Of a stretch of 64,000 bases of DNA, positions 2,150-63,169 are shown one piece after another. The stretch spans positions 13,621-77,620 of the forward strand of contig JAGVWJ010000014.1 of the NCBI GenBank assembly GCA_018304385.1, written 5' to 3'. Position 1 is the first letter of the stretch; each line of letters begins with the position of its first letter. The notes beneath the pieces were generated by a model that had not been told where the DNA came from, ran no database searches, and worked only from the letters and a program-made list of their open reading frames with translations. This DNA comes from Candidatus Micrarchaeota archaeon (lineage in GTDB: Archaea; Micrarchaeota; Micrarchaeia; Anstonellales; Bilamarchaeaceae). Position numbers and translations under genes: made by a program.

Positions 2150-2166
2150 AAACTCCTAACCAAAAA

Positions 2167-2496
2167 CTAAACTATTTGTTTCAACTTATCTGCATATTCC
2201 TTTAACATTTTTTTCTGGTCTCTGCTTTTTACAACCCCACATAATAAGTAGCTTCCTACTGGTAATAGCACAAGAAATAGCCCTCCTGCGGATATTTCTA
2301 TTTCTCGTTGTGTATCTTTTAATGTTTTAAGCAAGGCATCACATACATTTGAAAGCGAGGCAAATGTACTCGCACCGCTTTCGCTAAGCGAGATAGTAGA
2401 ACTAATAAGAATACCGTCGTTTCGAACAACCGCACCAGTTATTCCATTATTGCGCATCTCTGCAAGCAAATCGTCAACACTTTTAGTTTCTGCCAT
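2167..2496 (-). CDS. Roadblock/LC7 (MglB-like) domain protein
   Basis: 109 aa. The GITGAVVRNDGILISS...LFLVLLPVG pattern is typical of the Roadblock/LC7 fold. It is preceded by a copy of the leader repeat. Confidence 0.55.
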   Translation of the reverse strand: MAETKSVDDLLAEMRNNGITGAVVRNDGILISSTISLSESGASTFASLSNVCDALLKTLKDTQREIEISAGGLFLVLLPVGSYLLCGVVKSRDQKKMLKEYADKLKQIV

Positions 2497-2620
2497 CTAT
2501 GTTCTCCCCCTATTTTCTCCTTATTACGAAGCCGTCATTTTACTTATATTTTCTATAGTGACGCAGTCTTTTATAATCCTATGCTGCGTCGGCCGTCTTC
2601 ATGTTTTATATGTAAATAAA
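2497..2620 (-). repeat. promoter-leader repeat, copy 1 (upstream of Roadblock gene)
   Basis: Read on the minus strand: tttttatttacata..gacggccGACGCAG-cataggattataaaaga-CTGCGTCactatagaaaatataagtaaaatgacgg...aaggag..acatagATG. The hairpin arms are 2560-66 and 2584-90. Confidence 0.75.
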
Positions 2621-2623
2621 AAC

Positions 2624-2651
2624 TAATGGCTCATTGCTGAATGCTCATTGC
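2624..2651 (-). repeat. heptamer array, GC type, 4 units
   Basis: Minus strand: gcaatga gcattca gcaatga gccatta, followed directly by the tttttatttacata of leader copy 1. Confidence 0.75.
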
Positions 2652-5774: not shown

Positions 5775-6245
5775 ATGGATAAAACTATTGATGCAATTGT
5801 AGATGGCGGTAAAGCAACATCTGGCCCACCTTTAGGACCGGCACTTGGACCATTAGGTGTAAATGCGGGTCAGGTAGTTGCGAAAATAAACGAGGCAACA
5901 AGCTCATTCTCTGGTATGAAAGTACCAGTAAAAGTAATAGTAAATACCAAAACAAAGGAATTCAAAATTGAAATTGGCACTCCACCAACAGCTGAGATAA
6001 TCAAAAAAGAAGCTGGGATAGCAAAGGGAGCAGCTAGTAAAGATGCAAAGGCAGGGAATATTGAATTAGAAAAAATTATAAAAATCGCAAAACAAAAGAG
6101 CAACTCGCTAGGCAAAGACACAAAATCAGTTGTTAATGAAATACTGGGTACTTGCGTAAGCATGGGCGTTACTGTTAACGGAAAAGATGCCAAGTTGGTT
6201 ATAAAAGAAATGAAAGAAGGAAAACATGAACCTTTACTGCCATGA
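5775..6245 (+). CDS. rpl11: 50S ribosomal protein L11 (uL11)
   Basis: GGKATSGPPLGPALGPLGVN signature, 156 aa. Confidence 0.95.
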   Translation: MDKTIDAIVDGGKATSGPPLGPALGPLGVNAGQVVAKINEATSSFSGMKVPVKVIVNTKTKEFKIEIGTPPTAEIIKKEAGIAKGAASKDAKAGNIELEKIIKIAKQKSNSLGKDTKSVVNEILGTCVSMGVTVNGKDAKLVIKEMKEGKHEPLLP

Positions 6246-6287
6246 GCTGTGAGCAGTCAGCAATGGGCCCATGGCTCAGGGCAACAA
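6239..6287 (+). repeat. heptamer array, GC type, 7 units
   Basis: gccatga gctgtga gcagtca gcaatgg gcccatg gctcagg gcaacaa. It starts on the L11 stop codon and ends at the tatttaaatatta box 16 nt before the propeller-protein ATG. Confidence 0.85.
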
Positions 6288-6316: not shown

Positions 6317-7957
6317 ATGCAAAAAACAATACTCACAGCTTTTATCCTAATTTTATTTATATCCGCAGCCTTTGCAGAGGTTGAATGGGAGTATCATGCA
6401 GACGCAGGGATTTCATTAAAACCAATAGTATCAGGTAATAAAATATTTATTGCATCACAAGATGGCATTCTACATGCAGTATCATTGAATACAGGAAAAA
6501 TGCTATGGAAGCGGGCAATTGGAAAATTTGTATTACAACCTATTCTGTTTCAAAGTAATATAATTGTTGCAAATAACAACGGTACAATAGCAAAAATAAA
6601 GCAGGACGGCACAGTTGAATCACAATTAAACATACCCTCGATTAATTCAAAAGTAACTACAATATACGGAATTGATAGTGCCACAAACAAGATATATCTA
6701 ACAACAGATGGAGGAGTTTTTACATTAGAAGAGAATAATGTTTCTTCATTTTTTAACGCAACATCTTCAAAGACGTACACAAGTCCAACTGTAAGCGGTT
6801 CTAAGATAGTTTTCGGTGCAGGTGATGAACTTATCGTCTTAAATACAAATAAACAAGTAGCCTGGCGAAAAAAGGTTGCTGAATTTTGGACTTCTAAACC
6901 AATAGTAGAGGGTTCTGTGATATATATAGGGGCACTGGATAATGCTATATACGCATTTGATTTAGATGACGGGAATTTACTTTGGAGGTATGAAACCGAT
7001 GGATGGGTTGCAAGCACACCATATATAGAAGGAAGCACCGTATACGTAGGAAGCAATGATGGATATGTTTACGCAATATCAAATGGATATTTACAATGGA
7101 AGGCAAAAACAGATCAGGCTGTTCAAACCATGCCAATAAGCGGGAGTTTTGCTGGTAGAGATGCTTTATTTGTTGGTAGTAGTGATGGAAAGCTTTATGC
7201 CGTAGAAAAAAATACAGGGAAAATATTATGGAGATTCTTAGCAGGAGACTGGGTTGCAAGCCCCGCAATTAGCGTGGATAAAATAATTGTAGGATCAAGA
7301 AATGGAATTGTATACAGTATAAAAACTGAAAGAGGTTGTACGATAAACGAGCCAGAAGAAAAATCAACAGTTGGTCAAAAAGAGGTAAGGTTAAAGGGCA
7401 TTGCATTATCTAATAGCGGCTCTCCAAGTGTTAGTGTACGCATTGGCAATGATGGACCATGGAAATCAGCAAGCGTAAGCGGGGATGAATGGAAACTTAA
7501 GTTAGATCCTTCTGAAATGCGTGCTGGGCCAAATCGCATATTTTGCAAAGTAAGCGATGCTGGTGGCGAGGAAAGCGAGCCTTATTACTCTACAATATTA
7601 CTAAAAAATCCTAGTATACCAAAATCAAAACTCATTGTAACTGCGCCAAAAAGTGTTAATGCAAATAAATTATTTGTAATATCTGTAAATGATGGTGATG
7701 ATAATTCCCCAGTAGAAGAGTTTAAGATTATATACGAGGGTAAGGAAGAGATTGCCACTGGGAATATAACATTAAATATTACAAAGGAAGGAAAATTCTC
7801 TGGGAATATAACTAAGACTGGATTTGAGGATACAAGTGTGCAATTAGATATTAAGGTGCCGAATCCATTGGTTGATATGGCTGTGCCTGCGATTGGCGGG
7901 TTATTATTACTAGCGATATTATACTTCTTTGTAGTTAGGAGATTATTTAGAAGATGA
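6317..7957 (+). CDS. secreted PQQ-like beta-propeller repeat protein with C-terminal membrane anchor
   Basis: Start moved to MQKTILTAFILILFISAAFA (signal peptide), because the upstream part of the ORF is a heptamer array plus a TATA-like box. It has repeated G..YA.D..tG..lW motifs, Ig-like middle domains and a C-terminal TM followed by RRLFRR. Confidence 0.75.
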   Translation: MQKTILTAFILILFISAAFAEVEWEYHADAGISLKPIVSGNKIFIASQDGILHAVSLNTGKMLWKRAIGKFVLQPILFQSNIIVANNNGTIAKIKQDGTVESQLNIPSINSKVTTIYGIDSATNKIYLTTDGGVFTLEENNVSSFFNATSSKTYTSPTVSGSKIVFGAGDELIVLNTNKQVAWRKKVAEFWTSKPIVEGSVIYIGALDNAIYAFDLDDGNLLWRYETDGWVASTPYIEGSTVYVGSNDGYVYAISNGYLQWKAKTDQAVQTMPISGSFAGRDALFVGSSDGKLYAVEKNTGKILWRFLAGDWVASPAISVDKIIVGSRNGIVYSIKTERGCTINEPEEKSTVGQKEVRLKGIALSNSGSPSVSVRIGNDGPWKSASVSGDEWKLKLDPSEMRAGPNRIFCKVSDAGGEESEPYYSTILLKNPSIPKSKLIVTAPKSVNANKLFVISVNDGDDNSPVEEFKIIYEGKEEIATGNITLNITKEGKFSGNITKTGFEDTSVQLDIKVPNPLVDMAVPAIGGLLLLAILYFFVVRRLFRR

Positions 7958-8401
7958 TTATTGGCTGGAGCGATCTTCTTTTAAGACCGATAAAATTCGC
8001 AAAAATTCGGTTGGAGAAATAATTTTTATTCCTTCAAATTCCCTTAGCTTCAGCAGGTGCGCGGCATCGTACGTAATAATATAATCAGCTTTCGCTTCTA
8101 TCGCGCACTCCAAAACTTTGTTATCATCTGGATCATCCTTAACAAAATCAATTTTCCGTTTTGGATCAACTATTTCACAGCTTTCTAATAATTTGATAAT
8201 TACTGATTTTATTGCCAAATGCTTTTCTTCTATTTTTTCAATAATCTCTTCGCTATGCATAACTTTGTTGTATTCTTCCAAAATATCCTTAGAGAGAAAG
8301 CATCCTATCCTCTTCTGCTCGATTAATTGCATGATCTGATAGGCTTCACCTTCCCAAAACGTTCCGGATATGAGAACGTTGGTGTCCAAAACAACGTTCA
8401 T
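7958..8401 (-). CDS. vapC: PIN-domain toxin (VapC-like)
   Basis: VVLDTNVLIS N-terminal acidic motif, 147 aa. It overlaps the upstream antitoxin gene by 4 nt. Confidence 0.8.
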   Translation of the reverse strand: MNVVLDTNVLISGTFWEGEAYQIMQLIEQKRIGCFLSKDILEEYNKVMHSEEIIEKIEEKHLAIKSVIIKLLESCEIVDPKRKIDFVKDDPDDNKVLECAIEAKADYIITYDAAHLLKLREFEGIKIISPTEFLRILSVLKEDRSSQ

Positions 8402-8646
8402 TTCTTTCGCATCTCGTGGATTAGTTTATCTACCTCTGTTTCGTTAATCTTCTTTTTAGCTTCTCGTAATGGTTGGGTAACCTGCTTCCATGTCTGTACA
8501 CTTACTTTTTTGATAAGCAGTGTATCCTCTTCTAAAAAGAAAAACACTCTGGCTCCTTCCTCCAAACCCATTTCCTTGCGGATATCTACAGGTATGGCTA
8601 TCTGCCCTCTTGCACTTACTGTTCCCATCTCAAGCATCTCGCTCAT
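8398..8646 (-). CDS. vapB: AbrB/SpoVT-family antitoxin
   Basis: GQIAIPVDIRKEMGLEEG swapped-hairpin motif, 82 aa, translationally coupled to the PIN gene. Confidence 0.8.
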   Translation of the reverse strand: MSEMLEMGTVSARGQIAIPVDIRKEMGLEEGARVFFFLEEDTLLIKKVSVQTWKQVTQPLREAKKKINETEVDKLIHEMRKK

Positions 8647-11135: not shown

Positions 11136-11270
11136 GCTATGTTCTACCCCTGTTTTCTCATTCTTATATAGACGTCGTACTACTTATGTTCTCTATAGGG
11201 ACGTGGTCTTATATATTCTGCATGCCACGTCGGCCGTTCTATGTCCTCCTCATGGAAGATAAAAACTTAG
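11136..11270 (-). repeat. promoter-leader repeat, copy 3 (upstream of glmS)
   Basis: Minus strand: gtttttatcttcc..catagaacggccGACGTGG-catgcagaatatataaga-CCACGTCcctatagagaacataagtagtacgacg..aagaatgagaaaaca..catagcATG. The arms are 11200-06 and 11225-31. Confidence 0.8.
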
Positions 11271-12239: not shown

Positions 12240-12267
12240 GCCATGAGCTTTGGGCATTGAGCCAATG
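12240..12267 (+). repeat. heptamer array, GC type, 4 units
   Basis: gccatga gctttgg gcattga gccaatg, followed directly by the paralog-1 promoter motif. Confidence 0.8.
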
Positions 12268-12268
12268 C

Positions 12269-12297
12269 CTACCTTCTTAATCCCTTGTTACCACAAC
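12269..12297 (+). promoter_or_regulatory. conserved promoter motif of the repeat-protein family (paralog 1)
   Basis: ctaccttcttaatcccttgttaccacaac, ending 6 nt before the ATG. Confidence 0.6.
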
Positions 12298-12303
12298 TTC
12301 ATC

Positions 12304-13254
12304 ATGCATAAAGCTTCAGTAACAGTAGTATTTGGTAGAGAACACGAAACAAGACGTATTAGAGCCCCACATTTAAGACTAATTCAGGGTGGTTTAGCCA
12401 ATCATAAACCAGAACCAGAAGAAAGGTCAATTAACTCTTCAAGAACCGTAGAAACAGAATTCAAACGTTGGCTAGCCTTGTTTTTTATTAAGCGAGGATA
12501 TTTTTGTATTACCAAGAAAGGTTGTGATGAGCTAGCGGAAATTATAAGAAATCGATATATGGAGAATGCAAGAGAATATTTAGGTATAAACCCTACTGAT
12601 TCGTATAGGGATAATTATGTAATTACGGTAGTGGGAGTTTTAACAGATAGCAAGATTAAGGAAAGAATAAAAAGGCACATTAAAAAAATGCTAGAAGAAG
12701 GAAAAGCTGAAGAATTATATGATAAAGGGTACATTGATCGTGCTAATGAAGTAGATTGGGAAAAAAAAGAGGTACGTATTGTTGTAATAAGAAAACTCCT
12801 AGAGATAACTAGCATTGAACCTAAGGATAGTAGTTATGACCTTTTTAATAATAGTGGTTTAGTTAGAGTACTTAAAAAATATCATAAAGATTCTCACTAT
12901 AATGCTCTGGTAGAAGCAGGTTACGCATATTCTGAAGATGAGATTAAAGAACATGCAAGAACTATGCAATTTGGAACTGAAAGAATATATAAATGGGAGA
13001 TGAAAAGCGTTGGAAATTACTTTTGGGAAAGTATAGACATGAGAACTGCCGCAACTAGATGGGTCATATGGAAATTAAATAAAAATTCAAGAGAGATAAT
13101 ATTGGGTGATTTTAAAAATAATGGATTAGGCGGATTGTTAACTCATCATTACAAAGATTCTCCTTATGAAGCGCTTCTAGAAGCAGGTCTTGTCACTCCA
13201 GCAGATGAAGCACATATGCGCCGCTATGGCCAAGCAAGATTCAAAGAGGTCTAA
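12304..13254 (+). CDS. 87-aa-repeat family protein, paralog 1 (1.5 repeat units)
   Basis: Shares the EFKRWLALFFI..G...IT.KG..ELA N-domain and the DF.NNGL.GLL..Y..SPY.AL.EAGYAYSE.EI.EHA...F.T..IY.WE repeat with 18933..20459 and 23200..24474. Start chosen 7 nt after the conserved promoter motif. Confidence 0.6.
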   Translation: MHKASVTVVFGREHETRRIRAPHLRLIQGGLANHKPEPEERSINSSRTVETEFKRWLALFFIKRGYFCITKKGCDELAEIIRNRYMENAREYLGINPTDSYRDNYVITVVGVLTDSKIKERIKRHIKKMLEEGKAEELYDKGYIDRANEVDWEKKEVRIVVIRKLLEITSIEPKDSSYDLFNNSGLVRVLKKYHKDSHYNALVEAGYAYSEDEIKEHARTMQFGTERIYKWEMKSVGNYFWESIDMRTAATRWVIWKLNKNSREIILGDFKNNGLGGLLTHHYKDSPYEALLEAGLVTPADEAHMRRYGQARFKEV

Positions 13255-13307
13255 TTAACCTATAACATTTATAAATAAACAAAGGAATAAGATAACTAGG
13301 TGGAATT

Positions 13308-13526
13308 ATGGAATACGTTCAAATTTCTAAAGAAGAATATGAAAAATTGCTAAAATACCGAGACATTGTAAACAACATTGAAGAGGATATTCATGAAGAG
13401 CTAAATGTAAAACCTATAACTGATAAGCGAGCAATAGAGAAACTAAAGCGATTGGATAAGGAGGTAAAGGAAGGCAAAAGAAAAACTTTTTCTAAGGAAG
13501 AATTCCTAGCTGAATTCGGTAAATGA
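13308..13526 (+). CDS. putative antitoxin
   Basis: 72-aa charged helical protein, 9 nt upstream of a RelE/ParE-like gene. Confidence 0.45.
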   Translation: MEYVQISKEEYEKLLKYRDIVNNIEEDIHEELNVKPITDKRAIEKLKRLDKEVKEGKRKTFSKEEFLAEFGK

Positions 13527-13535
13527 GTAGGTCTA

Positions 13536-13805
13536 ATGTATAACTTGGAATTCGAAAATGACTGGAGATCATATTTCAGAAATGTTCCCCTAGATATTCA
13601 AAATCGATTTAAGAAAAGACTAGACAAATATGAAACTTTTCCTAGCTTTGCTTTCAGACATGAAAAGCATGGTTTGGATTTCTTTGTAGATGAAATAAAT
13701 CAGTATCGAGTTTTATTTACATCAGACGAAAAGTCAAAAATTAGAAGATTCTATTTTATTGGGGATCATAAAGAATATGAGAAATTTCTAGGGACTAGAA
13801 AATAG
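13536..13805 (+). CDS. RelE/ParE-family toxin
   Basis: 89 aa. The YRVLFTSDEKSKIRRFYFIGDHKEYEKFL C-terminal pattern is typical of RelE/ParE. Confidence 0.6.
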   Translation: MYNLEFENDWRSYFRNVPLDIQNRFKKRLDKYETFPSFAFRHEKHGLDFFVDEINQYRVLFTSDEKSKIRRFYFIGDHKEYEKFLGTRK

Positions 13806-18811: not shown

Positions 18812-18865
18812 CAACAAGGTTTAGCCCCTAGGAAAGTTATTTTGATTATGAGCTAAACCTCGTTG
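18812..18865. promoter_or_regulatory. 14-bp-stem inverted repeat in divergent promoter region
   Basis: caacaaggtttagc (18812-18825) matches the reverse complement of gctaaacctcgttg (18852-18865) at 13 of 14 positions, with a 26-nt spacer. It lies between the idsA start and paralog 2. Confidence 0.55.
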
Positions 18866-18896
18866 TGAGCACTGAGCCATGAGCAGTGGGCAAAGA
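18862..18896 (+). repeat. heptamer array, 5 units
   Basis: gttgtga gcactga gccatga gcagtgg gcaaaga, followed directly by the paralog-2 promoter motif. Confidence 0.8.
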
Positions 18897-18932: not shown

Positions 18933-20459
18933 ATGAGAAGACAGGCAATTGGCAGTGGGCAATGTGCAGTGAGCCAAAGGCCAATAGCTAAGAGCCAAGT
19001 GCCACTAACTGACAAAATAGATAAATCAACTGAATTCAAACGTTGGTTAGCTTTATTCTTTATTGAAAGAGGGAGATATAAAATTACTGGTAAAGGTTAT
19101 ACTGAACTAGCGCCACAAGTTATTAGACAAAACCTAGAATTTGGAGAACCAGTCAGCGATAGAAAAAGAGAACCTAGGTTAGAAAGCACAAGACCATTAA
19201 CTCCAAAAGAGATTAAGGAAACAGTAGCAGCCAGAGTAGAAGGAATGATTAGAGAGGGAAAGACTGAAGAATTACTTGATGAAGGACATCTAGCTTATAA
19301 ATCAAATTGGAAAAATAAACAAACTAGAATAACAGTAATAAAAAAACTATTAGAATTTTTAGGCGCTAGTCCTGCTAGACTGGATAAATTAAGAGAAGAA
19401 TTAGGTGAACTTATTCTAAAATCTGCAAGAGAAGAACCAACAGACACAAAAAGAATGCAAGAAGTTTTAGAAGAGATAAAAAGTAATTTAGAAAGAATTA
19501 GAAAACTAAGTTTCAACAATTTTAGATTTTATGGAATTTCTGGTATGACTGGTAAATACCATAGGAACTCTCCTTATTTAGTTTTAGTAGAAATAGGTTA
19601 CGCTTATTCTGAGGAAGAAATTAGAGAACATGCTAGAACTGGAAAGTTTGGAACTGATAAAATATATCCTTGGGAAATGCAAAAAGTCGGAAGTGAAGTT
19701 TATAAAAATAATTCAATTAGGGTAGCTGCAATAAAATGGGTAGTTTGGAAATTGAAAAAGAAACCATCAGATATAAATACAATTGATTTTCAAAGTAATT
19801 TAGGTGGATTATTAAGGTACTATAATGATTCTGTTTATTCTGCACTAGTCGACGCAGAATATGCACATACCACTGAAGAAATATTAACCCAATCTAAAAT
19901 TGGTATATTTAATGATAACAAAGCATACCCATGGGAACTAGAGAGAATGCCTTTTGGTCTATGGCCGAATAAAGAAATTAGAATAGCTGCTACTAAATGG
20001 TTAGTTTGGAAAACTAAAAAAGATCCAAGGGAGATAACTCATAAGGATTTTAACAATAATAGATTAAACGGATTATTAAATCATTGCGAAGAATATGCTT
20101 ATAGGGCATTAGTAGAAGCGGGTTATGTTTATTCTGAAGATAAAATTAAAGAGCATGCAGGAACTGGAGAATTTAAAACTGAAAAAATTTATCCCTGGGA
20201 GATGGACCCTGCTCCACATGGATTTTACGAAGAAAAAGAAAATAGAATAGCTGTAATAAAGTGGCTATTCTGGAAAACTAGAAAACAAGCAAAGGATATA
20301 ATTCAACAGGATTTTATCAATAATGGGATTGCTACTATACTAAAATATTATAATGGCTCCCCCTATGAAGCACTTTTAGAAGCAGATCTAATAAGACCAG
20401 AAAATGAATCATACATGCGAAAGCGTGGATATCTAAATCTACAAAAAAGACACAGTTAA
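18933..20459 (+). CDS. 87-aa-repeat family protein, paralog 2 (3.5 repeat units)
   Basis: Same family as 12304..13254 and 23200..24474. The N-terminal roughly 200 codons are near-identical at DNA level to paralog 3. Codons 5-25 are encoded by a 9-unit heptamer array. Confidence 0.6.
   Translation: MRRQAIGSGQCAVSQRPIAKSQVPLTDKIDKSTEFKRWLALFFIERGRYKITGKGYTELAPQVIRQNLEFGEPVSDRKREPRLESTRPLTPKEIKETVAARVEGMIREGKTEELLDEGHLAYKSNWKNKQTRITVIKKLLEFLGASPARLDKLREELGELILKSAREEPTDTKRMQEVLEEIKSNLERIRKLSFNNFRFYGISGMTGKYHRNSPYLVLVEIGYAYSEEEIREHARTGKFGTDKIYPWEMQKVGSEVYKNNSIRVAAIKWVVWKLKKKPSDINTIDFQSNLGGLLRYYNDSVYSALVDAEYAHTTEEILTQSKIGIFNDNKAYPWELERMPFGLWPNKEIRIAATKWLVWKTKKDPREITHKDFNNNRLNGLLNHCEEYAYRALVEAGYVYSEDKIKEHAGTGEFKTEKIYPWEMDPAPHGFYEEKENRIAVIKWLFWKTRKQAKDIIQQDFINNGIATILKYYNGSPYEALLEADLIRPENESYMRKRGYLNLQKRHS
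18945..19007 (+). repeat. heptamer array, GC type, 9 units, inside the 5' coding region of paralog 2
   Basis: gcaattg gcagtgg gcaatgt gcagtga gccaaag gccaata gctaaga gccaagt gccacta. Every unit starts with GC at an exact 7-nt spacing. Confidence 0.85.
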
Positions 20460-23147: not shown

Positions 23148-23163
23148 AAGCATTGAGTATATA

Positions 23164-23199: not shown

Positions 23200-24474
23200 A
23201 TGACAAGACGTACTGCAATGAGCCATGAGCCTTGGGCAGTGGGCAAAACACGAAACGCTGGACGTGAGACTACAATAAGCCAACAGCCACTAACTGATCA
23301 AATAGAAAAATCAGCAGAATTTAAGCGACGGTTAGCTTTATTCTTTATTGAAATAGGGAGATACAAGATTACTGATAAAGGATATGAAGAACTAGCACCT
23401 GTAGTATTTAGGCAAAATCTAGAATTTGGAGAACCTGTTAGTGATAGAGTTAGAGAACCAAGGTTAGAAAGTAAAAGACCATTAACTCCAAAAGAGATTA
23501 AGGAAACAGTAGCAGCGAAAGTAGAAGGAATGATTAGAGAGGGAAAGACTGAAGAATTACTTGATGAGGGGCATATAATATATAAAGCAGATTGGAAAGA
23601 AAAAAGAACTAGAATTAAAGTAATAAAAAAACTATTAGAATTTTTAGGAGCTAGTCCTGTTAGATTGGATGGATTAAGAGAAGAATTAAGCGAACTTATT
23701 CTAAAATCTGCCAGAGAAGAAAAGACAGATACAAAAAGAATGCAAGAGGTTTTAGAAGAGATTCAAAGAAATTTGGAGAGAGTTAGAAAAATAACCAAAG
23801 ATGATTTTATTAACAATGGATTAGGTGGGTTGTTAATAAGTCATTACAAAAACTCTCCGCATTCTGCGTTAGTAGAAGCTGGATATGCTTACTCTGAAAA
23901 TGAAATAAAGGAGCATGCTAGAACTGGAGAATTTGGAACTGATAAGATATATCCTTGGGAACATAACCAAACCGTACATAAGTTTTATAAAAAATCTGAA
24001 ATTAGGGTGGCAGCTATTGAATGGCTTATTTGGAGACTAAAGAAAGATCCAAAGGAAATAAATACTGACGATTTCAGGAACAATGGGTTAAGTGGATTGC
24101 TAAATCACTATAATGGTTCTCCCTATGCTGCACTACTAGAAGCTGGTTATGCTTATTCTGAAGATGAAATCTTAGAACATGCTAAAAAAATGGAGTTCAG
24201 AACTGATAGGATTTATCCTTGGGAACTAACAAAAATGCCTGTTGAACTATGGCCTAATAAAGAAATCAGAATAGCAGCAACCAAATGGTTGCTTTGGAAG
24301 TTAAAAAAAGAAGAACCAAGAGAAATAACCAGAAGGGATTTTATTAAAAACGGGCTCCAAGGCTTATTAGATAGATACGATGGCTCTCCCTATGAAGCAC
24401 TTCTAGAAGCCAGCCTAGTAGCGCCCACAGATGAATCTTACATGCGAGAACGAGGATACAGAAACTTAATATAG
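23200..24474 (+). CDS. 87-aa-repeat family protein, paralog 3 (2.5 repeat units)
   Basis: Start moved to MTRRTAMSHEP (ATG 23200), 9 nt after the conserved promoter motif, which removes the overlap with 22449..23147. Codons 6-17 are encoded by a 5-unit heptamer array. Confidence 0.6.
   Translation: MTRRTAMSHEPWAVGKTRNAGRETTISQQPLTDQIEKSAEFKRRLALFFIEIGRYKITDKGYEELAPVVFRQNLEFGEPVSDRVREPRLESKRPLTPKEIKETVAAKVEGMIREGKTEELLDEGHIIYKADWKEKRTRIKVIKKLLEFLGASPVRLDGLREELSELILKSAREEKTDTKRMQEVLEEIQRNLERVRKITKDDFINNGLGGLLISHYKNSPHSALVEAGYAYSENEIKEHARTGEFGTDKIYPWEHNQTVHKFYKKSEIRVAAIEWLIWRLKKDPKEINTDDFRNNGLSGLLNHYNGSPYAALLEAGYAYSEDEILEHAKKMEFRTDRIYPWELTKMPVELWPNKEIRIAATKWLLWKLKKEEPREITRRDFIKNGLQGLLDRYDGSPYEALLEASLVAPTDESYMRERGYRNLI
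23215..23249 (+). repeat. heptamer array, GC type, 5 units, inside the 5' coding region of paralog 3
   Basis: gcaatga gccatga gccttgg gcagtgg gcaaaac. Confidence 0.8.
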
Positions 24475-24857: not shown

Positions 24858-26078
24858 TTAATCAACTTTAAATATTTTTTTCGCTTCTTTAATCCCATCA
24901 CAAAGCTTATCCACATCTTTTTTATCATTATAAATATAGAAACTAGCTCTACTGCTAGCTGGCAATGCTAAACGCTCGTGCAATGGCATAGCACAATGAT
25001 GACCACTTCTAATAGCTACATTATATTCATCTAAGATGGAGGCAAGATCATGCGGATGAACACCATTAACAGTAAATGCAATAACACCTGCACGCTTTTC
25101 TGGATTTTTAGGACCAAAAATATTAACCCCGTTTATTTCTGTCATTTTTTGCAGTGCGTATTGAGTAATAATCTGTTCATGTTTTCTTATATTTTCCATT
25201 CCAAGTTTTCCAAGATAATCTATTGCAGCTCCTAAGCCAATCACACTGGAAGCTGGAGGCGTGCCTGACTCAAACTTAAACGGTAATTCGTTCCATTTTG
25301 ACTCTTCCACATGTACTTCAGAAATCATGTCCCCACCATACAAAAACGGATCCGTCTCTTCCAGCACTTGCTCTTTGCCGTATAATATACCTACACCAGT
25401 TGGACCAAGCATTTTATGACCTGAAAAAGCAAAAAAATCGCAATCAATTGCGCTAGCGTCTATTTGCATATGAGGGATACTTTGTGCGCCATCAACTAAT
25501 ACTTTTGCGCCCGCATCATGAGCAAGCTTACACAGTTTATTTACATTATTTAGAGTTCCAAGAACATTAGACACATGTGTGATCGCTAGTAATTTTGCAC
25601 CTTTTATTTTTTCAAAATCAGATTCTTTTAGTTCGCCTTCTTCATTTATGTCAATTATCTCAAGTTTTGCGCCTTTTTGTTTTGCTAATTGCTGCCATGG
25701 CACGAAATTACTATGATGCTCCATTATTGAAATAACTATTTTATCTCCTTTTTTGATATTTTTTTCTCCCCAACCGCGCATAACTAGATTTATGGATTCA
25801 GTAGTATTTTTCGTGAAAATAATCTCTTGCTCGCTTTTGGCAGATATAAAATCACGAACCTTGGTTCTTACATTCTCAAATTTCTCGCTAGCTTCTTCAC
25901 TTATTTTGTATATCCCGCGGTGTACATTTGCATTATAATTAGTATAAAATTCATTTACTGCATCTATTACTTGTTGCGGTCGCTGAGAGGTGGCTGCAGA
26001 ATCCAGATAAACAAGTGTGGGATTATTTTTAAAAATAGGAAAATCTTCTTTTATTTTATCGATGTTCATATTGCTCAT
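24858..26078 (-). CDS. sufS: cysteine desulfurase SufS
   Basis: PLP-lysine motif FSGHKMLGPTG and active-site RSGHHCAMP. 406 aa. Confidence 0.95.
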   Translation of the reverse strand: MSNMNIDKIKEDFPIFKNNPTLVYLDSAATSQRPQQVIDAVNEFYTNYNANVHRGIYKISEEASEKFENVRTKVRDFISAKSEQEIIFTKNTTESINLVMRGWGEKNIKKGDKIVISIMEHHSNFVPWQQLAKQKGAKLEIIDINEEGELKESDFEKIKGAKLLAITHVSNVLGTLNNVNKLCKLAHDAGAKVLVDGAQSIPHMQIDASAIDCDFFAFSGHKMLGPTGVGILYGKEQVLEETDPFLYGGDMISEVHVEESKWNELPFKFESGTPPASSVIGLGAAIDYLGKLGMENIRKHEQIITQYALQKMTEINGVNIFGPKNPEKRAGVIAFTVNGVHPHDLASILDEYNVAIRSGHHCAMPLHERLALPASSRASFYIYNDKKDVDKLCDGIKEAKKIFKVD

Positions 26079-26102
26079 TGCTCAAAGCCCATTGCTCACG
26101 GC
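26068..26102 (-). repeat. heptamer array, GC type, 5 units, spanning the sufC stop and sufS start
   Basis: Minus strand: gccgtga gcaatgg gctttga gcaatga gcaatat. It encodes the last residues of SufC (TAVSNGL-stop) and the first codons of SufS (MSN). Confidence 0.8.
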
Positions 26103-26834
26103 AGTTAAACCTTTGTATCCTTTCTCTTCTAGTTCGTGTGCTAATTTCGCATCTCCAGATTTTACTATCTTTCCATCGACCATAATATGTACAAAATCTG
26201 GTATGATATATTCTAATATTCTTTTATAATGTGTTATTAATAAAAAGCAACGGTCTATAGAACGCATTTCATTGATTGTTTTTGCAACATGCTTTAATGC
26301 ATCTATATCTAAGCCAGAATCAATTTCATCAAGTATAATCACTTTTGGTTTTAAAACTGCCATTTGTAGTATTTCATTACGTTTTTTCTCCCCGCCAGAA
26401 AAACCAACATTTAAATCACGCTTTGCAAAATCTTTTGATATCCCAATGTTATGCGTTGCTTCATCAATTTCTTTTTGTATCTTCAGCATCTCATCTAAAA
26501 CTTTTCTTTTGTCCTTTTCTTCTCCAAGCTTTGCTTTTCTTAACAAATTAGCAACTGTCACGCCTTCTATCTCTTGAGGATTTTGAAATGCTAGGAACAT
26601 GCCTTTTCTTGCACGCTCATCTGTTCGCAAATGAGAAACATTTTCACCATTAAGCAATATTTCACCGCTAATATCAAATGTAGGATTACCAAGTAATGAA
26701 GACGCTAACGTACTTTTGCCTGCGCCATTCGGCCCCATGATTGCATGGAGCTCTCCATTTTTTATTTTTAGATTTAAGTCCTTGATAATCTGCTTATCCC
26801 CAATGCTAACAGTAAAGTTTTTGATTTCAAACAT
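26082..26834 (-). CDS. sufC: Fe-S cluster assembly ATPase SufC
   Basis: Walker A GPNGAGKST, ABC signature FSGGEKKR and Walker B ILDEIDSGLD. Confidence 0.95.
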   Translation of the reverse strand: MFEIKNFTVSIGDKQIIKDLNLKIKNGELHAIMGPNGAGKSTLASSLLGNPTFDISGEILLNGENVSHLRTDERARKGMFLAFQNPQEIEGVTVANLLRKAKLGEEKDKRKVLDEMLKIQKEIDEATHNIGISKDFAKRDLNVGFSGGEKKRNEILQMAVLKPKVIILDEIDSGLDIDALKHVAKTINEMRSIDRCFLLITHYKRILEYIIPDFVHIMVDGKIVKSGDAKLAHELEEKGYKGLTAVSNGL

Positions 26835-26950
26835 CGTCTTATGCCCTCCTTATGCTCAAGCACTAGAGTATCTCTTAGGTTAGCCGCAGGACCCACCGCA
26901 AAGCGGTTCCCCCGCGGCGGCCTTCTTATGTATTCATTATGTAAATAAAA
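26835..26950 (-). repeat. promoter-leader repeat, copy 4 (divergent variant upstream of sufC)
   Basis: It shares the 5' ttttatttacataatgaatacataagaaggccg and the 3' aaggagggcata..ATG. The central hairpin is replaced by a GC-rich structure (accgc-ttt-gcggt nested in gccgc...gcggc). Confidence 0.5.
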
Positions 26951-26985
26951 CCTTGGCCCAAAGCTCATGGCTCATTGCTCATGGC
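26951..26985 (-). repeat. heptamer array, GC type, 5 units, centre of the sufC/sufB divergent region
   Basis: Minus strand: gccatga gcaatga gccatga gctttgg gccaagg, followed directly by the ttttatttacata of leader copy 4. Confidence 0.85.
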
Positions 26986-29647: not shown

Positions 29648-30058
29648 ATGCTCGCTATAGATGGAACAAATCTTGTACTCGGACGCGCTGCCTCGCAGAT
29701 TGCAAAAAAACTATTGCAAGGCGAGCAAGTGCATTTAGTAAACGCTGAGAGTATGATTATACATGGGAATCCAAAACAAATTATAGAGAAATATACACAA
29801 CGAAGACGCATTCAGCATAAAGGAACTCCAGAAAAATCGCCATCCTGGCCAAAGATACCAAATTTGCTCGTTAGAAGAATAATCAGAGGTATGCTACCTT
29901 GGAAAAGATCAAGAGGGAAAGATGCTTATAAGAAATTATTTGTTTATGTTGGCAATCCGAAAAAATTAGAAGCAAAAAAATTAGATAATGCGGAATTTAA
30001 ATCTGCAAACCGCCATATAACGATTTTGGAGCTTTGTAAGAATTTTGGTTATGCATAA
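29648..30058 (+). CDS. rpl13: 50S ribosomal protein L13 (uL13)
   Basis: IDGTNLVLGRAASQIAKKLLQGE N-terminus, typical of uL13. Confidence 0.9.
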   Translation: MLAIDGTNLVLGRAASQIAKKLLQGEQVHLVNAESMIIHGNPKQIIEKYTQRRRIQHKGTPEKSPSWPKIPNLLVRRIIRGMLPWKRSRGKDAYKKLFVYVGNPKKLEAKKLDNAEFKSANRHITILELCKNFGYA

Positions 30059-30068
30059 AGTGATTTTT

Positions 30069-30632
30069 ATGGAAGAAACAAAAAAAGAGGAGATAAAGGA
30101 AGAAGCAGTAGCACCAACAACAGCTAAAAAAGAGCGAAAGCCAAGAAAAAAGAAAGAAGAAACAGTAAAAAGCGAGGCTGGAGCAGAAGAACCTAAAAAA
30201 GAGGAAACGAAATCAAAGAAAAAAAAGAAAAAACAGGCTTTGGTTCTACGTGGCAAAAGAAAAGAGAGCATTGCACGAGCAACAATACGTGCAGGAAAAG
30301 GAAATGTTCGCATAAATCATATGAAATTAGAAGCTTATTATTCTAACAAATATATTAGAGATATAGTAAGACAACCATTAAGCTATCTTGGCCCAGAGAC
30401 ACTTAGCATTGATATCAGTATAGATGTAATTGGTGGCGGTATGATGGGCCAAGCACAGGCAGCAAGAACTGCTATTGCAAATGCGCTAGTTGAATATTTC
30501 CCAGATCAAAATCTAAAAGAAAAATTCTTAAGTATAGATAGGTCACTATTAATAGAAGATGTTAGACGCGTTGAACCAAAGAAATTCAAAGGGCCAAAGG
30601 CTCGAGCAAGATTCCAGAAGTCGTACAGGTGA
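30069..30632 (+). CDS. rps9: 30S ribosomal protein S9 (uS9) with K/E-rich N-terminal extension
   Basis: GKRKESIARATIR core and a C-terminal ARARFQKSYR. About 60 extra low-complexity K/E residues sit at the N-terminus. Confidence 0.9.
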   Translation: MEETKKEEIKEEAVAPTTAKKERKPRKKKEETVKSEAGAEEPKKEETKSKKKKKKQALVLRGKRKESIARATIRAGKGNVRINHMKLEAYYSNKYIRDIVRQPLSYLGPETLSIDISIDVIGGGMMGQAQAARTAIANALVEYFPDQNLKEKFLSIDRSLLIEDVRRVEPKKFKGPKARARFQKSYR

Positions 30633-30634
30633 CT

Positions 30635-30655
30635 GCCTTGGGCAGTGAGCCATTG
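30635..30655 (+). repeat. heptamer array, GC type, 3 units
   Basis: gccttgg gcagtga gccattg, then ggttttatattacata (leader copy 5). It begins 3 nt after the S9 stop. Confidence 0.7.
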
Positions 30656-30787
30656 GGTTTTATATTACATAAGGTTTCATAGAACGGCCGACGCGACCAT
30701 AAAGAAAATACGTGTGTCGCGTCCCTAAAGGTTTCATAGGTAAAACGACGGCTTTGTTAGAATGGGAGAACAGAAGGAGGTCATAGC
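30656..30787 (+). repeat. promoter-leader repeat, copy 5 (upstream of rpoN)
   Basis: ttttatattacataaggtttcatagaacggccGACGCGAC-cataaagaaaatacgtgt-GTCGCGTCcctaaaggtttcataggtaaaacgacgg..agaatgggagaacagaaggaggtcatagcATG. The arms are 30690-97 and 30716-23. Confidence 0.8.
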
Positions 30788-30982
30788 ATGGAATTCCCAA
30801 TAAGATGTTTTAGTTGTGGCGGAGTTATCGGAGATTTATACGAACAATACAAATCATTATCAAAAGATAAAGGTCCTGAAGCAGCACTTAACGATCTTGG
30901 ATTAGATAGATATTGTTGTAGAAGAATGTTTGTTTCACATATCGAAATTACAGATAAGATATCGAAGTATCCAAGAATTTAG
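30788..30982 (+). CDS. rpoN: DNA-directed RNA polymerase subunit N (Rpo10)
   Basis: PIRCFSCG...RYCCRRM zinc motif, 64 aa. Confidence 0.95.
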   Translation: MEFPIRCFSCGGVIGDLYEQYKSLSKDKGPEAALNDLGLDRYCCRRMFVSHIEITDKISKYPRI

Positions 30983-31016
30983 CAGTGAGCTTTGGGCAGT
31001 GGGCCTTGAGCCACTG
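30982..31016 (+). repeat. heptamer array, GC type, 5 units
   Basis: gcagtga gctttgg gcagtgg gccttga gccactg, then ggttttattaacata (leader copy 6). It begins on the last base of the rpoN stop. Confidence 0.85.
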
Positions 31017-31146
31017 GGTTTTATTAACATAAGTAATACCTAGGACGACCGACGTGGCATTAAGAAAATATAAGACCACGTCCCTATAGAGAATATAAGT
31101 AGAACGACGAATATGTAAGAATGAGAAAACAAAAGTATAATACAGC
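31017..31146 (+). repeat. promoter-leader repeat, copy 6 (immediately upstream of tRNA-Pro)
   Basis: ttttattaacataag..gaccGACGTGG-cattaagaaaatataaga-CCACGTCcctatagagaatataagtagaacgacg..aagaatgagaaaacaaaag, then tRNA +1 at 31147. The arms are 31051-57 and 31076-82. It lacks the GGAGG..catagATG tail of the protein-gene copies. Confidence 0.8.
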
Positions 31147-31278
31147 GGGATCGTGAGGTAACCTGGCATCCTGCGAGCTTGGGGTGTTCGTTATCTGAGT
31201 GCGCTTTTTAGGTAAAAAGTGCCCAAAAACTGGGACGCTAACTAAAAAGTCCCAGAAATTCAAATCTCAGCGGTCCCA
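31147..31278 (+). tRNA. tRNA-Pro(GGG) with a 59-nt non-canonical intron in the T-arm/T-loop
   Basis: Hand fold. Acceptor GGGATCG (31147-53) pairs with CGGTCCC (31271-77), followed by discriminator A. The D-arm is AGG..GG..CCT. The anticodon arm is CGAGC-TTGGGGT-GTTCG (anticodon GGG at 31181-83, G37). The variable loop is TTAT. T-stem CTGAG (31195-99) pairs with CTCAG (31266-70), with T-loop TTCAAAT (31259-65). The 59 nt at 31200-31258 interrupt position 53/54 (or 54/55). The mature length is 73 nt. Confidence 0.8.
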
Positions 31279-33292: not shown

Positions 33293-33366
33293 GCCATGAG
33301 CAGTGGGCAGTGAGCCGTGGGCCAACTCGTTTGGTGGCTCACTGCTCATGGCCCAATGCCCAAGGC
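33293..33366. repeat. inverted pair of GC-type heptamer arrays (5 + 5 units)
   Basis: Forward: gccatga gcagtgg gcagtga gccgtgg gccaact (33293-327). Reverse-oriented: tggtggc tcactgc tcatggc ccaatgc ccaaggc (33332-366). Confidence 0.85.
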
Positions 33367-45984: not shown

Positions 45985-46019
45985 GTTTCCAGTTTTCAGT
46001 TTCGAGTCTTGAGTCCCCA
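45985..46019 (+). repeat. heptamer array, GT type, 5 units
   Basis: gtttcca gttttca gtttcga gtcttga gtcccca, lying 18 nt upstream (on the minus strand) of the lpdA start. Confidence 0.75.
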
Positions 46020-52588: not shown

Positions 52589-52663
52589 GTTGTGAGTTTG
52601 GAGTTATGAGTTTTGAGTAATTGTCAGTGCACAACTCACAACCCACAACTCATTACTCATAAC
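52589..52663. repeat. inverted pair of GT-type heptamer arrays (5 + 5 units) upstream of E2
   Basis: Forward: gttgtga gtttgga gttatga gttttga gtaattg (52589-623). Reverse-oriented: gcacaac tcacaac ccacaac tcattac tcataac (52629-663). Confidence 0.85.
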
Positions 52664-57588: not shown

Positions 57589-57609
57589 CCATTGCCCACT
57601 GCTCATGAC
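57589..57609 (-). repeat. heptamer array, 3 units, spanning the E1alpha stop, between E1alpha and E1beta
   Basis: Minus strand: gtcatga gcagtgg gcaatgg. The TGA of the first unit is the E1alpha stop codon. Confidence 0.65.
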
Positions 57610-58682
57610 TTATTTTTCAAATATTCCATCAATTCATTCATCTGCTCAACCAGATGCGGTGGCATTTTCGAATAGGTATACATAAAAACATCTTCAGGAT
57701 TATCTAATTTCATTGACTCTGCCTCTTCTATTGCTTTTTCTATTTCGCTAGTCGCACGTTCAACAGTTTTCTTTTCTAAATCCTCATTCCAATAACCATT
57801 GCGCTCTAGATAAATCCTAAATCGTTTTACTGGATCGCGTTCCTTCCATTGCTCAACCTCGGCAGAATCTCTATATTTTGTCCAATCATCTGCCGTAGTA
57901 TGATGACTCATTCTATAAGTTAATGCCTCTATTAGTGTTGGGCCTTCACCTCGATGCGCTTTATCAATTGCTTCTTTTGTTGCCCTATACACCGCAAGAA
58001 CATCATTACCATCAACCTGCACACCTTCAAAGCCATATGCGAGCGCTTTTTGCGCAATTGTTTTGGCAGCAGTTTGTTTTTTACGCGGAACGCTTATCGC
58101 CCATTGATTATTCTGATTAAGAAAAACAGTTGGAGTTTTAAAAACGCCAGCAAAATTCATTGCCTCGTGAAAATCTCCTTCGCTTGTTGCTCCATCTCCA
58201 AAGTAAACCATGGTTGCAACTTTATGATTAAGAATTTTTGCAGCCCATGCTGCACCAACTGCATGCAATGTTTGTGTTGCAATAGGAATTGAAACTAAAA
58301 AATTATGCTTGCCTTCTGGTATCTTCATGCCAAGTTCGCTGCCCATTAAATATACAAACATCCATTTCATTTCTGTGCCACGCCATAAATAACCGCCATG
58401 CTCCCTATAGCTTGGGAAAAACCAGTCTTCTTCGTTTAGTGCTGCTATGCTGCCTATTTGCGCTGCTTCCTGACCAAGGCATGGTGGATAAGTATAAATC
58501 CTTCCTTGCCTTTGTAATTTAAGTGCCTTATCATCAAACATGCGCGTAACAACCATTGTTATATACATTCTCAGAAGTAGATCCTTTGGTAGTTTTGGGT
58601 CTAGCTTTTCATCAGCATTTCCATCTTTATCTATTACTTGTATATATTTTACTTTACCTTCAAAGACTGTTTCAATTGGCAT
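57603..58682 (-). CDS. 2-oxoacid dehydrogenase E1 component alpha subunit
   Basis: TPP motif YFGDGATSEGDFHEAMNFA. ATG at 58682 (MPIETVFEG), with GAAGGTG 8 nt upstream, is preferred over the TTG at 58697. Confidence 0.92.
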   Translation of the reverse strand: MPIETVFEGKVKYIQVIDKDGNADEKLDPKLPKDLLLRMYITMVVTRMFDDKALKLQRQGRIYTYPPCLGQEAAQIGSIAALNEEDWFFPSYREHGGYLWRGTEMKWMFVYLMGSELGMKIPEGKHNFLVSIPIATQTLHAVGAAWAAKILNHKVATMVYFGDGATSEGDFHEAMNFAGVFKTPTVFLNQNNQWAISVPRKKQTAAKTIAQKALAYGFEGVQVDGNDVLAVYRATKEAIDKAHRGEGPTLIEALTYRMSHHTTADDWTKYRDSAEVEQWKERDPVKRFRIYLERNGYWNEDLEKKTVERATSEIEKAIEEAESMKLDNPEDVFMYTYSKMPPHLVEQMNELMEYLKNKS

Positions 58683-58769
58683 GAGGAACACCTTCAACTG
58701 GAAATAAACTCACCATATATCAAAGAAAAATATTTAAATAGTTTCGTAATGCGGTTCGCGGATTGACGA

Positions 58770-62859: not shown

Positions 62860-62899
62860 ATGAATATTTAAAATAGGTAACAATAAAAAATATAAATAG

Positions 62900-63079
62900 G
62901 CTCCTGTAATCTAGCCCGGTCAAAAGAGTTTACAGTCTCGAGTCTCGAGTCTTGAACTATTTACTGATAGGATGTCAGACTCTCACTCTGAATACCCGAG
63001 TTCAAATTCAAACTTTTAGGTAAAAGTTTGATCAAAACTGCTTCGTTAATAGAAGCTTATGGAAATCTCGGCAGGAGCG
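62900..63079 (+). tRNA. tRNA-Glu(CUC) with two non-canonical introns (D-loop about 46 nt, T-loop about 59 nt)
   Basis: Hand fold. Acceptor GCTCCTG (62900-06) is perfectly complementary to CAGGAGC (63072-78), followed by discriminator G. D-stem ATCT (62909-12) pairs with GGAT (62970-73). The D-loop AGCCCGGTCAA differs by 1 nt from the canonical archaeal tRNA-Glu D-loop as I recall it. The anticodon arm is TCAGA-CTCTCAC-TCTGA (CTC at 62982-84). T-stem CCGAG (62996-63000) pairs with CTCGG (63067-71), with TTCAAAT at 63001-07. The exons sum to 75 nt. Intervening blocks are about 62924-62969 and about 63008-63066, and the exact junctions are ambiguous by a few nt. Confidence 0.65.
62928..62955 (+). 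repeat. heptamer array, GT type, 4 units, inside tRNA-Glu intron 1
   Basis: gtttaca gtctcga gtctcga gtcttga. Confidence 0.75.
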
Positions 63080-63169
63080 CTTTCTTCTATTCCAGTAACT
63101 GGAATGAAATTGACTAAAATCATTCCACCAACTGGAACGTTTAAAAATCCTTCTATTCTATAACTACTT

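Follow-up and report, generated by a model that had tools for sequence, protein, structure and literature searches.

Heptamer arrays at gene boundaries of a Micrarchaeota genome: probably a lineage-restricted dispersed repeat without a role at promoters

The short heptamer arrays that stand beside A/T-rich, TATA-like boxes in this Micrarchaeota genome are probably a fast-evolving repeat that is limited to tolerated boundary sites and plays no part in promoter function, a reading that we favor with some reserve. Comparisons between strains and with sister genomes indicate that the arrays are young, gained as blocks, subject to turnover of their units and dispensable for the adjacent promoters. 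The initial annotation of the window (the whole 64-kb stretch of DNA analyzed here) had proposed that array and box form a composite promoter module, in which the array activates or insulates the promoter or moves together with the box as one unit.

According to source names and samples, the window belongs to a Candidatus Micrarchaeota (DPANN) population from Rifle aquifer groundwater. It has a G + C content of 35.8%, is about 90% coding and has spacers with a median of 60 nt; the array census covered about 130 kb of one genome. The array unit is G-Y-N-N-T-G-R, mostly GCNNTGR, and 3-5 units make up a run. A strict scan for GCNNTGR (at least three units, each matching at least 4 of the 5 fixed positions, and at least two units perfect) found 13 arrays in the window vs. 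none in 30 Markov shuffles, and confirmed the arrays from which the promoter module had been proposed. When G-Y was allowed at the first two positions, the number rose to 16 (0.17 in shuffles), with the addition of a GTNNTGA subtype. The same class of arrays was recovered by a pattern-free autocorrelation at period 7 (10 regions vs. 0.1 in shuffles), and period 7 was prominent among periods 5-10 in a head-to-tail period test. Since independent assemblies (ENA, Logan and JGI) contain identical arrays, these are not assembly artefacts.

The composition of the unit was tallied over 80 units: G at position 1 (100%), C (84%) or T (16%) at position 2, T at position 5 (95%), G at position 6 (88%) and A or G at position 7 (98%), with G never found at position 3 and C almost never at position 4. 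Five of the seven positions are nearly invariant and the other two are free to vary, also within single arrays, a pattern that neutral decay would not yield. One possible explanation for the constant skeleton is that it could be under selection as a binding site; it could also result from the youth of the arrays and a small pool of unit types. At the 5' edge of the arrays there is a T/A-rich stretch followed by CT (ACT in 7 of the 13 window arrays), and at the 3' edge a partial unit, GCCA or GCAA. All but two of the 16 window arrays lie in spacers, and of 19 single arrays, 16 have the same orientation as their flanking genes by our own tabulation. The upstream stop codon is contained in the array or lies at most 6 nt from its start in 11 of 16 sense arrays, and starting at a stop codon is as regular a feature of the arrays as ending at a TATA-like box. 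Fold z-scores are near 0 for most single arrays, which show no significant RNA structure, and strong folding is found only in inverted pairs.

Four of the arrays cited in the initial annotation (2624, 26951, 30635 and 30982) are copies of a single array-TATA-leader cassette of about 130 nt. The features of the cassette-bearing loci, including one cassette without an array and the second suf array, are the following:

2497-2623, minus strand: promoter-leader cassette upstream of a 109-aa gene
2624-2651, minus strand: heptamer array, starting 5 nt past the stop codon of a KaiC-like gene (2657) and adjoining TTTTATTTACATA (2609-2621)
11136-11262, minus strand: subtype 1 promoter-leader cassette upstream of glmS, without array
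26075-26102, minus strand: heptamer array at the sufC-sufS junction, inside the suf operon, without TATA-like box, polymorphic for presence or absence
26835-26950, minus strand: subtype 2 promoter-leader cassette upstream of sufC
26951-26985, minus strand: five-unit heptamer array, with the ancestral divergent promoter region of sufB/sufC on one side and TTTTATTTACATA (26938-26950) on the other
30635-30655, plus strand: heptamer array GCCTTGG GCAGTGA GCCATTG, starting 2 nt past the S9 stop codon (30630-30632) and ending 2 nt before a TATA-like box (30658-30670)
30656-30787, plus strand: subtype 1 promoter-leader cassette upstream of rpoN, with GGTTTTATATTACATAAG, then CATAGAACGGCCGACG (30678), a hairpin (30690-30723), SD and ATG at 30788
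30788-30982, plus strand: rpoN, coding for the 64-aa subunit N of RNA polymerase (the L216 gene call has Pfam RNA_pol_N)
30982-31016, plus strand: heptamer array GCAGTGA GCTTTGG GCAGTGG GCCTTGA GCCACTG, adjoining GGTTTTATTAACATA (31017-31031)
31017-31146, plus strand: subtype 1 promoter-leader cassette upstream of tRNA-Pro, with a hairpin at 31051-31082
31147-31278, plus strand: tRNA-Pro(GGG) gene, interrupted in the T-arm region by a non-canonical insert of 59 nt (about 31197-31255)

The cassette consists, in order, of the TATA-like box, a spacer of about 10 nt, CATAGAACGGCCGACG, a hairpin of 7-8 bp, a second conserved block, and SD with start codon; one copy terminates at the 5' end of tRNA-Pro and not at an SD and start codon. 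The spacing from TATA box to transcription start in archaea is usually about 25 nt, and CATAGAACGGCCGACG would sit at the start expected from the TATA-like box of the cassette. Five copies have a completely (100%) paired hairpin, with compensatory double changes at three pairs, and the junction GCCAnTG/GGTTTTAT is common to five loci. Comparison with Rfam gave no match at gathering score, the one relaxed match being a meaningless lncRNA. Array 30982-31016 overlaps the end of rpoN by one base, the G of the TAG stop codon, with which the array begins. The intact tRNA-Pro gene was missed by ARAGORN and Rfam; with the 59-nt insert removed, ARAGORN returned tRNA-Pro(ggg), which bears out the identity first assigned to it.

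The remaining arrays of the window occur in a variety of contexts:

2133-2167, minus strand: GT-type repeat of period 7/14, of uncertain family membership, reaching from the stop of gene 2167-2496 to the next gene start, with an SD-like AGGAG
6239-6287, plus strand: forward array (6239-6266) and inverted half-array (6269-6282), then TATTTAAATATTA
12240-12267, plus strand: array starting 5 nt past an HTH gene stop, then CCTACCTTCTTAATCCCTTGTTACCACAA and ATG at 12304
18862-18896, plus strand: array of five units upstream of CTACCTTTTTAATCCCTTGTTACCACAA and the ATG (18933) of a 508-aa repeat-protein paralog
18945-18986, plus strand: array inside codons 1 to ~18 of the 508-aa paralog
23215-23246, plus strand: array in the N-terminal codons of a third paralog
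33293-33366: inverted array pair (33293-33320, plus strand; 33339-33366, minus strand) between divergent A/T-rich promoter-like regions
45985-46015, plus strand: GT-type heptamer array, of uncertain family membership, antisense to the flanking genes and just upstream of an SD and ATG at 45967 (minus strand)
52589-52663: GTNNTGA-type arrays as an inverted pair, with a TATA-like box on one side and, on the other, the start codon (52579, minus strand) of a gene with a lipoyl domain (E2-like)
57589-57609, minus strand: array without TATA-like box, with the next start codon 35 nt downstream

In array 6239-6266 the TGA of the first unit is the L11 stop codon, and the first unit of the operon-internal array 57589-57609 gives the stop codon of gene 57603-58697. 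The pair at 33293-33366 forms an imperfect long hairpin (fold z-scores -5.6 and -5.0) and that at 52589-52663 has a z-score of -5.6. Beyond the window, L212 has an array over the aconitase stop, at the aconitase-Idh junction inside an operon, L127 has one in a convergent spacer, and L210 has both an antisense array within an ORF and an inverted pair (7520-7614) between a TATA-like box and a start codon. Arrays between divergent promoters were found at 26951, at 33293/33339 and at position 694 of L211. A repeat at 62924-62956 was excluded from the arrays; it lies inside a probable multi-intron tRNA, for which ARAGORN gave no confirmation after removal of one insert.

For a quantitative view of the juxtaposition, a box was counted when an A/T-only run of at least 7 nt began 0-6 nt from an array end. 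Such a run was present at 11 of 17 array ends, compared to 23% of random intergenic positions and 19% of positions after stop codons (binomial p = 3e-4), and the juxtaposition therefore exceeds random placement; in this sample the arrays do lie nearer to such boxes than chance would place them, in agreement with the initial annotation. The counted ends are not independent, since four come from one cassette and two are paralogous; with homologous copies collapsed, the enrichment persists at about 8 of 12 by our estimate, and for that reason A/T boxes may be preferred targets of the arrays or sites at which they function. A preference for T/A-rich targets is possible.

The individual cases are less uniform than had been described. 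At least seven arrays were said to end within 0-3 nt of a TATA-like box. This holds for the four cassette arrays, whose 3' ends are 0-2 nt from (G)GTTTTAT(W)TACATA. At 6239 the A/T box is reached at 0 nt, but only past the inverted second half-array (6269-6282), and at 18862 and 12240 the gaps to CTTTTTAAT or, at 12240, to the weak box CTTCTTAAT are 5-7 nt, with 5 nt at 18862 and about 6 nt at 12240. Similarly, the decay of the last unit into GGTTTTA is a property of the four cassette copies and of no other array. As a rule, the fixed juxtaposition fails: the arrays at 26075, 57589, 18945, 23215 and 45985 have no A/T box, and in the inverted pairs 33293/33339, 52589/52629 and L210 7520-7614 the boxes contact the 5' ends of the arrays and not the 3' ends, so there is no fixed polarity between array and box. 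The arrays consequently lack the fixed distance and polarity upstream of TATA that would mark a promoter element.

Within the population, the sufC-sufS junction is the site at which an array is polymorphic. Array 26075-26102 provides the stop codon of SufC and its C-terminal residues LTAVSNGL, and it is absent from the co-occurring strains L213-L215, which are about 99.5% identical to the window. SufC ends in KGIVE in these strains, as in all relatives, vs. KGLTAVSNGL in the window, where 21 nt are replaced by 40 nt (TTTAACT, four units and GCAAT). A cluster of SNPs beside the array junction suggests a recombination tract. Neither terminal inverted repeats nor target-site duplications were seen at this site, and in about 130 kb of the genome no array, the polymorphic one included, had a donor match of more than 18 nt. 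No variation in array length was found among the population contigs, in which the 40-nt block replacement is the sole array polymorphism. Upstream of sufC, a block of about 145 nt comprising array, TATA-like box and leader is identical in strains L213-L215 and absent from the sister genome L216, which has a 71-nt divergent spacer there.

The comparison with relatives drew on 80 S9-containing loci from metagenomes. Among these, an array is present in L127 alone, the nearest relative (S9 core 83% identical); none was found in the other 79, which represent more distant relatives (~420 kb). GlmS-anchored relatives (L207, L208 and L209) likewise have none, even at a threshold of two units. Arrays are present in L216 (S9 core 94% identical). 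On the sequences compared, the arrays are lineage-restricted: among relatives, only the closest (L216 and L127) have them. The cassette is confined to the same narrow lineage. The sites at which the genomes can be aligned show how arrays differ:

S9-rpoN site: three units in the window; 4-5 units at the same site in L216; none in L127
rpoN-tRNA-Pro site: array and TATA-like box (~57 nt) in the window; both missing from L216 and from L127
Upstream of L18e: decayed two-unit remnant in the window; reverse-oriented four-unit array in L216

Unit number thus differs between the window and L216, and presence or absence is seen at four otherwise collinear sites (sufC-sufS, upstream of sufC, rpoN-tRNA and upstream of L18e). 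The S9-rpoN spacer of L127 has kept the TATA box, which begins 2 nt past the S9 stop codon, and the CATAGAACGGCC leader, all without an array, and the glmS cassette copy lacks an array in L207 as it does in the window. Leader subtypes have been exchanged between orthologous loci. Unlike a promoter element, the arrays are not conserved with the promoter at orthologous loci, as seen at S9-rpoN in L127, at glmS in L207 and in the 79 relatives.

Three of the window's arrayed genes are paralogs that encode a repeat protein. Array 12240-12267 stands at the left junction of a lineage-specific insertion of about 1.6 kb, which carries one paralog and a toxin-antitoxin-like pair, and the 508-aa paralog is inserted between the polyprenyl synthase and Rpr2 genes. 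The three share a 28-nt promoter segment that is distinct from the cassette; depending on the copy, 0, 1, 4 or 5 units stand upstream of the paralog promoter CTTTTTAATCCCTTGTTACCACAA, and in the third paralog the TATA-like box is preceded by just one unit (GCATTGA, near 23150). The arrays in the first codons of two paralogs avoid in-frame TGA, and the array-encoded residues 1-28 are disordered in a confident AF2 model. The helical-repeat paralogs could not be recognized as DNA or RNA binders: the AF2 model has a pLDDT of 88, yet there was no PDB match with E < 0.1 and no Pfam match.

In our proposal, the heptamers make up a family of short, dispersed tandem repeats that is restricted to one lineage and has recently colonized very short non-coding spacers. 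Their contact with TATA-like boxes would have two causes. One is common descent, four of the cited cases being one cassette and two being paralogous 5' regions. The other would be the geometry of a compact genome: the stop codon and the following TATA box stand 0-10 nt apart, and because of this a tolerated insert touches both. The enrichment beside A/T boxes that is left over is what compaction predicts. Arrays are gained as blocks, as the strain polymorphism and the sister-genome comparisons show, likely by recombination or by copying from other arrays, and then alter by unit gain, loss and decay, as the differences between the window and L216 show. The TGA of an array may replace the stop codon of the upstream gene, which would enlarge the range of tolerated sites. 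The sense-strand bias plausibly arises because the TGA of sense arrays can replace the last codons and stop of a gene, as is seen in SufC, L11, aconitase and gene 57603-58697. Any effect of the arrays on expression is probably incidental, through a stop-to-TATA spacing of 20-35 bp or through hairpins when arrays are paired.

The alternative closest to the cassette data is that array, TATA-like box and structured leader form a portable, composite mobile expression cassette, with the array as its 5' handle for recombination or insertion. The array/TATA junction conserved at five loci, the ~145-nt block missing at sufC in L216, the ~57-nt block missing at rpoN-tRNA in L216 and L127, the swapping of leader subtypes between orthologous loci and the shared narrow lineage all speak for it, and at least in the cassette, array and TATA-like box were joined once and then copied. 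To this extent the proposal that array and box move as one unit stands. It does not extend further: the TATA-leader also occurs alone, upstream of glmS in the window and at S9-rpoN of L127, and the majority of arrays are not joined to a cassette, and we therefore regard the array as a frequent but not obligatory passenger. The cassette also has no terminal inverted repeats, target-site duplication or transposase, it ends exactly at start codons in a manner that fits gene conversion better than transposition, and no copy was found in the other 65 kb of the same genome, so that we regard a mobile cassette as rather unlikely. A bolder version, which we consider a long shot, is that the arrays act in cis as the handle of an archaeal system for copy-and-paste or gene conversion, hitherto undescribed, which would move expression signals and accessory genes into gene boundaries, with a lineage-specific protein recognizing G-Y-N-N-T-G-R. 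The cargo in such a case would be the TATA box with the ~100-nt hairpin leader and SD, as well as the novel helical-repeat paralogs, which are inserted beside arrays and bear arrays in their first codons.

Two further alternatives give the arrays a function of their own. At the RNA level, transcribed UGRGC repeats, spaced 7 nt apart in intercistronic spacers and in 3' and 5' UTRs, might bind a post-transcriptional regulator; this would accommodate the sense-strand bias of single arrays, the arrays inside operons and just upstream of start codons, and the conserved skeleton with its two free positions, and a precedent has been proposed for the Beggiatoaceae TAACTGA repeats (PMC4679880). It is nevertheless improbable, considering that one array is polymorphic in an essential operon with no apparent consequence, that relatives with the same genes lack arrays, that no candidate binding protein was found, and that arrays upstream of TATA in divergent spacers would be transcribed with neither gene. 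At the DNA level, a protein bound to the array would block read-through or recruit TBP/TFB to the adjoining TATA box, which is in essence the activating or insulating element of the initial annotation. The A/T-box adjacency above expectation, the several arrays between divergent promoters and the separation by arrays of a stop codon from a TATA box otherwise 2 nt away are as such an element would have them, but the promoters in question also exist in array-less form, both in sister lineages and within this genome (S9-rpoN in L127, glmS in the window and in L207, paralog copies). Moreover, arrays are found where no promoter is expected (inside operons, in the spacer of a convergent gene pair and among the initial codons of two ORFs), the sufC-sufS array is missing from 99%-identical co-occurring strains, the polarity of array and A/T box is variable, and the segment at the BRE position, as read from sequence, is not purine/A-rich, unlike known archaeal BREs. 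We hold this reading to be very improbable, and a repeat tolerated at gene boundaries still appears to be the better account of the arrays.

Several other roles were tried and rejected. Three GCNNTGA units could act as a "backstop" with TGA in each of the three frames, but a stop in every frame is found in only 3 of 13 arrays, since about 35% of units end in TGG. An intrinsic terminator or hairpin role of single arrays is not in keeping with their fold z-scores, a viral origin was dropped as no viral contig carries ACTGCCATGAGC-type arrays, and a replication-strand bias was discarded as the arrays track gene direction on both strands.

Among short non-coding repeats, REP/BIME and the Correia elements of Neisseria are found after stop codons or between genes, singly or as inverted pairs forming hairpins, can contain promoters or give rise to them, and differ between strains through gain or loss. 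The arrays described here differ in being non-palindromic tandem heptamers without terminal inverted repeats or target duplications, and no RAYT or transposase was seen among their annotated neighbors. With respect to archaeal promoters, the array ends coincide with the position expected of a BRE or upstream site and are 0-6 nt away from a TATA-like box that lies about 25 nt upstream of the conserved leader start; in contrast to a BRE or activator site, they are not BRE-like, are dispensable in orthologous and paralogous promoters and occur in many non-promoter contexts.

The closest known kind is that of dispersed intergenic heptanucleotide repeats (STRR, LSSR and TAACTGA). Cyanobacterial STRR/LSSR, in the summary given in PMC4679880, have heptanucleotide units in short dispersed arrays that are mainly intergenic (Mrazek et al. 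2007). As they are outlined there, the 7-nt tandem units, the intergenic location, the sporadic distribution and the change of copy number between relatives are shared with the present arrays. Set against that outline, the differences are the archaeal (DPANN) host, non-identical units with 5 fixed and 2 free positions, runs of 3-5 units with recurrent 5' (CT) and 3' (GCCA) edges, and block presence or absence alone, with no length polymorphism among population contigs. The TAACTGA repeats of marine Beggiatoaceae consist of 2-6 heptamer units and their function was reported as unknown (MacGregor 2015, PMC4679880). Their units also end in TGA and are intergenic near gene boundaries, including those of ribosomal protein operons; forward arrays give stop codons and hence overlap gene ends only slightly, and few lie within ORFs (PMC4679880). 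TAACTGA repeats are mostly a few nt upstream of start codons (PMC4679880), whereas most arrays here run from stop codon to TATA, have another, degenerate unit and are in some cases tied to a promoter-leader cassette. In the literature searched, arrays of this kind were described neither for Micrarchaeota nor for other archaea. What is new relative to the known kind is the archaeal host, degenerate units on a fixed skeleton, defined edges, block-wise gain and the link to a cassette.

Dispersed heptamer repeats have long been noted in some bacteria, and this DPANN genome is useful for the study of their origin and cost on account of an array present or absent, depending on the strain, within an essential operon, the turnover of units that can be measured against sister genomes, and the association with a copied promoter-leader cassette. 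The adjacency of a repeat and a TATA box in a compact genome does not by itself indicate regulation, and the structured 5' leader of about 100 nt that the cassette places before rpoN, sufC, glmS and a tRNA gene may be of more interest for regulation than the arrays.

Outside this lineage, heptamer arrays fitting GCNNTGR occur in many bacterial and viral contigs among the matches listed, inverted pairs included. A single cross-domain GCNNTGR family was rejected on the basis of control skeletons: among the matches listed, GCNNGTR is equally frequent in viral contigs, so that the GCNNTGR skeleton is not special there, and CGNNGTR was found at 44 loci.

Unrelated genes, namely rpoN, tRNA-Pro, a 109-aa gene, glmS and sufC, have in common one promoter-plus-leader cassette of ~100-130 nt, found in the window, in the array-bearing relatives L127 and L216, and in the glmS-anchored relative L207:

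30656-30787, window
31017-31146, window
2497-2623 (-), window
11136-11262 (-), window
26835-26950 (-), window
862-976, L127
1164-1250, L127
308-432 (-), L216
1-118 (-), L216
5150-5268, L207

The hairpin of the cassette shows compensatory changes, and comparison of sister genomes revealed two cassette subtypes that have been exchanged between orthologous loci. The distribution of the cassette is limited to the narrow lineage of the window.

Two loci in the window bear tRNA features interrupted by inserts:

31147-31278, tRNA-Pro(GGG) with a 59-nt non-canonical insert in the T-arm region (about 31197-31255)
~62899-63082, a second, probable tRNA interrupted by two or more inserts

The second candidate has acceptor halves GCTCCTG/CAGGAGC, a T-arm (CCGAG..CTCGG) interrupted by an insert and an internal GTCTCGA repeat (three copies), and the hairpin CTTTTAGGTAAAAG is common to this T-arm insert and the insert of tRNA-Pro. 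Neither ARAGORN nor Rfam detected the insert-bearing tRNA-Pro(GGG), and ARAGORN did not confirm a tRNA at ~62899-63082 when one insert was taken out. The D-loop of the L127 tRNA-Pro ortholog appears to hold an extra insert.

The rpoN-tRNAPro spacer of L127 (1220-1440) contains at least six short hairpins in series with CGAAG-type loops, e.g. cgattgtcgctcgaagcgacaatg. This run is a separate lineage-specific repeat, occupying the site of the heptamer array in the window. Ribosomal protein S9 (window 30045-30632) has a Lys/Glu-rich N-terminal extension of ~60 residues, as does that of L216.

About six SNPs distinguish the window from the co-occurring strain L213 within ~70 nt (~26105-26175, minus strand) adjoining the polymorphic sufC-sufS array, while no difference occurs over the ~900 nt that precede them; such clustering suggests a recombination tract beside the array. 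Several high-GC IMG/VR viral contigs (L244, L287, L326, L310 and L312; 64-65% G+C) carry more than one dispersed degenerate GCNNTGA array, often as forward/reverse pairs on either side of a short spacer, an architecture identical to that of the inverted pairs in the window.

The multi-copy helical-repeat protein family comprises 45 clusters, all in Micrarchaeota, and includes the following genes:

12304-13254, window
18933-20459, window
23200-24474, window
L210, L211 and L212 (other array-bearing contigs), at 10001

These genes sit as insertions, their flanking genes being contiguous in relatives. The family had no match in Pfam; its AF2 model is confident (pLDDT 88), and fold comparison of that model with the PDB returned nothing at E < 0.1. 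Two small gene pairs in the window look like toxin-antitoxin modules:

13308-13805, travelling with the paralog insertion 12240-13805
7958-8646, with MazE and PIN domains according to gene calls
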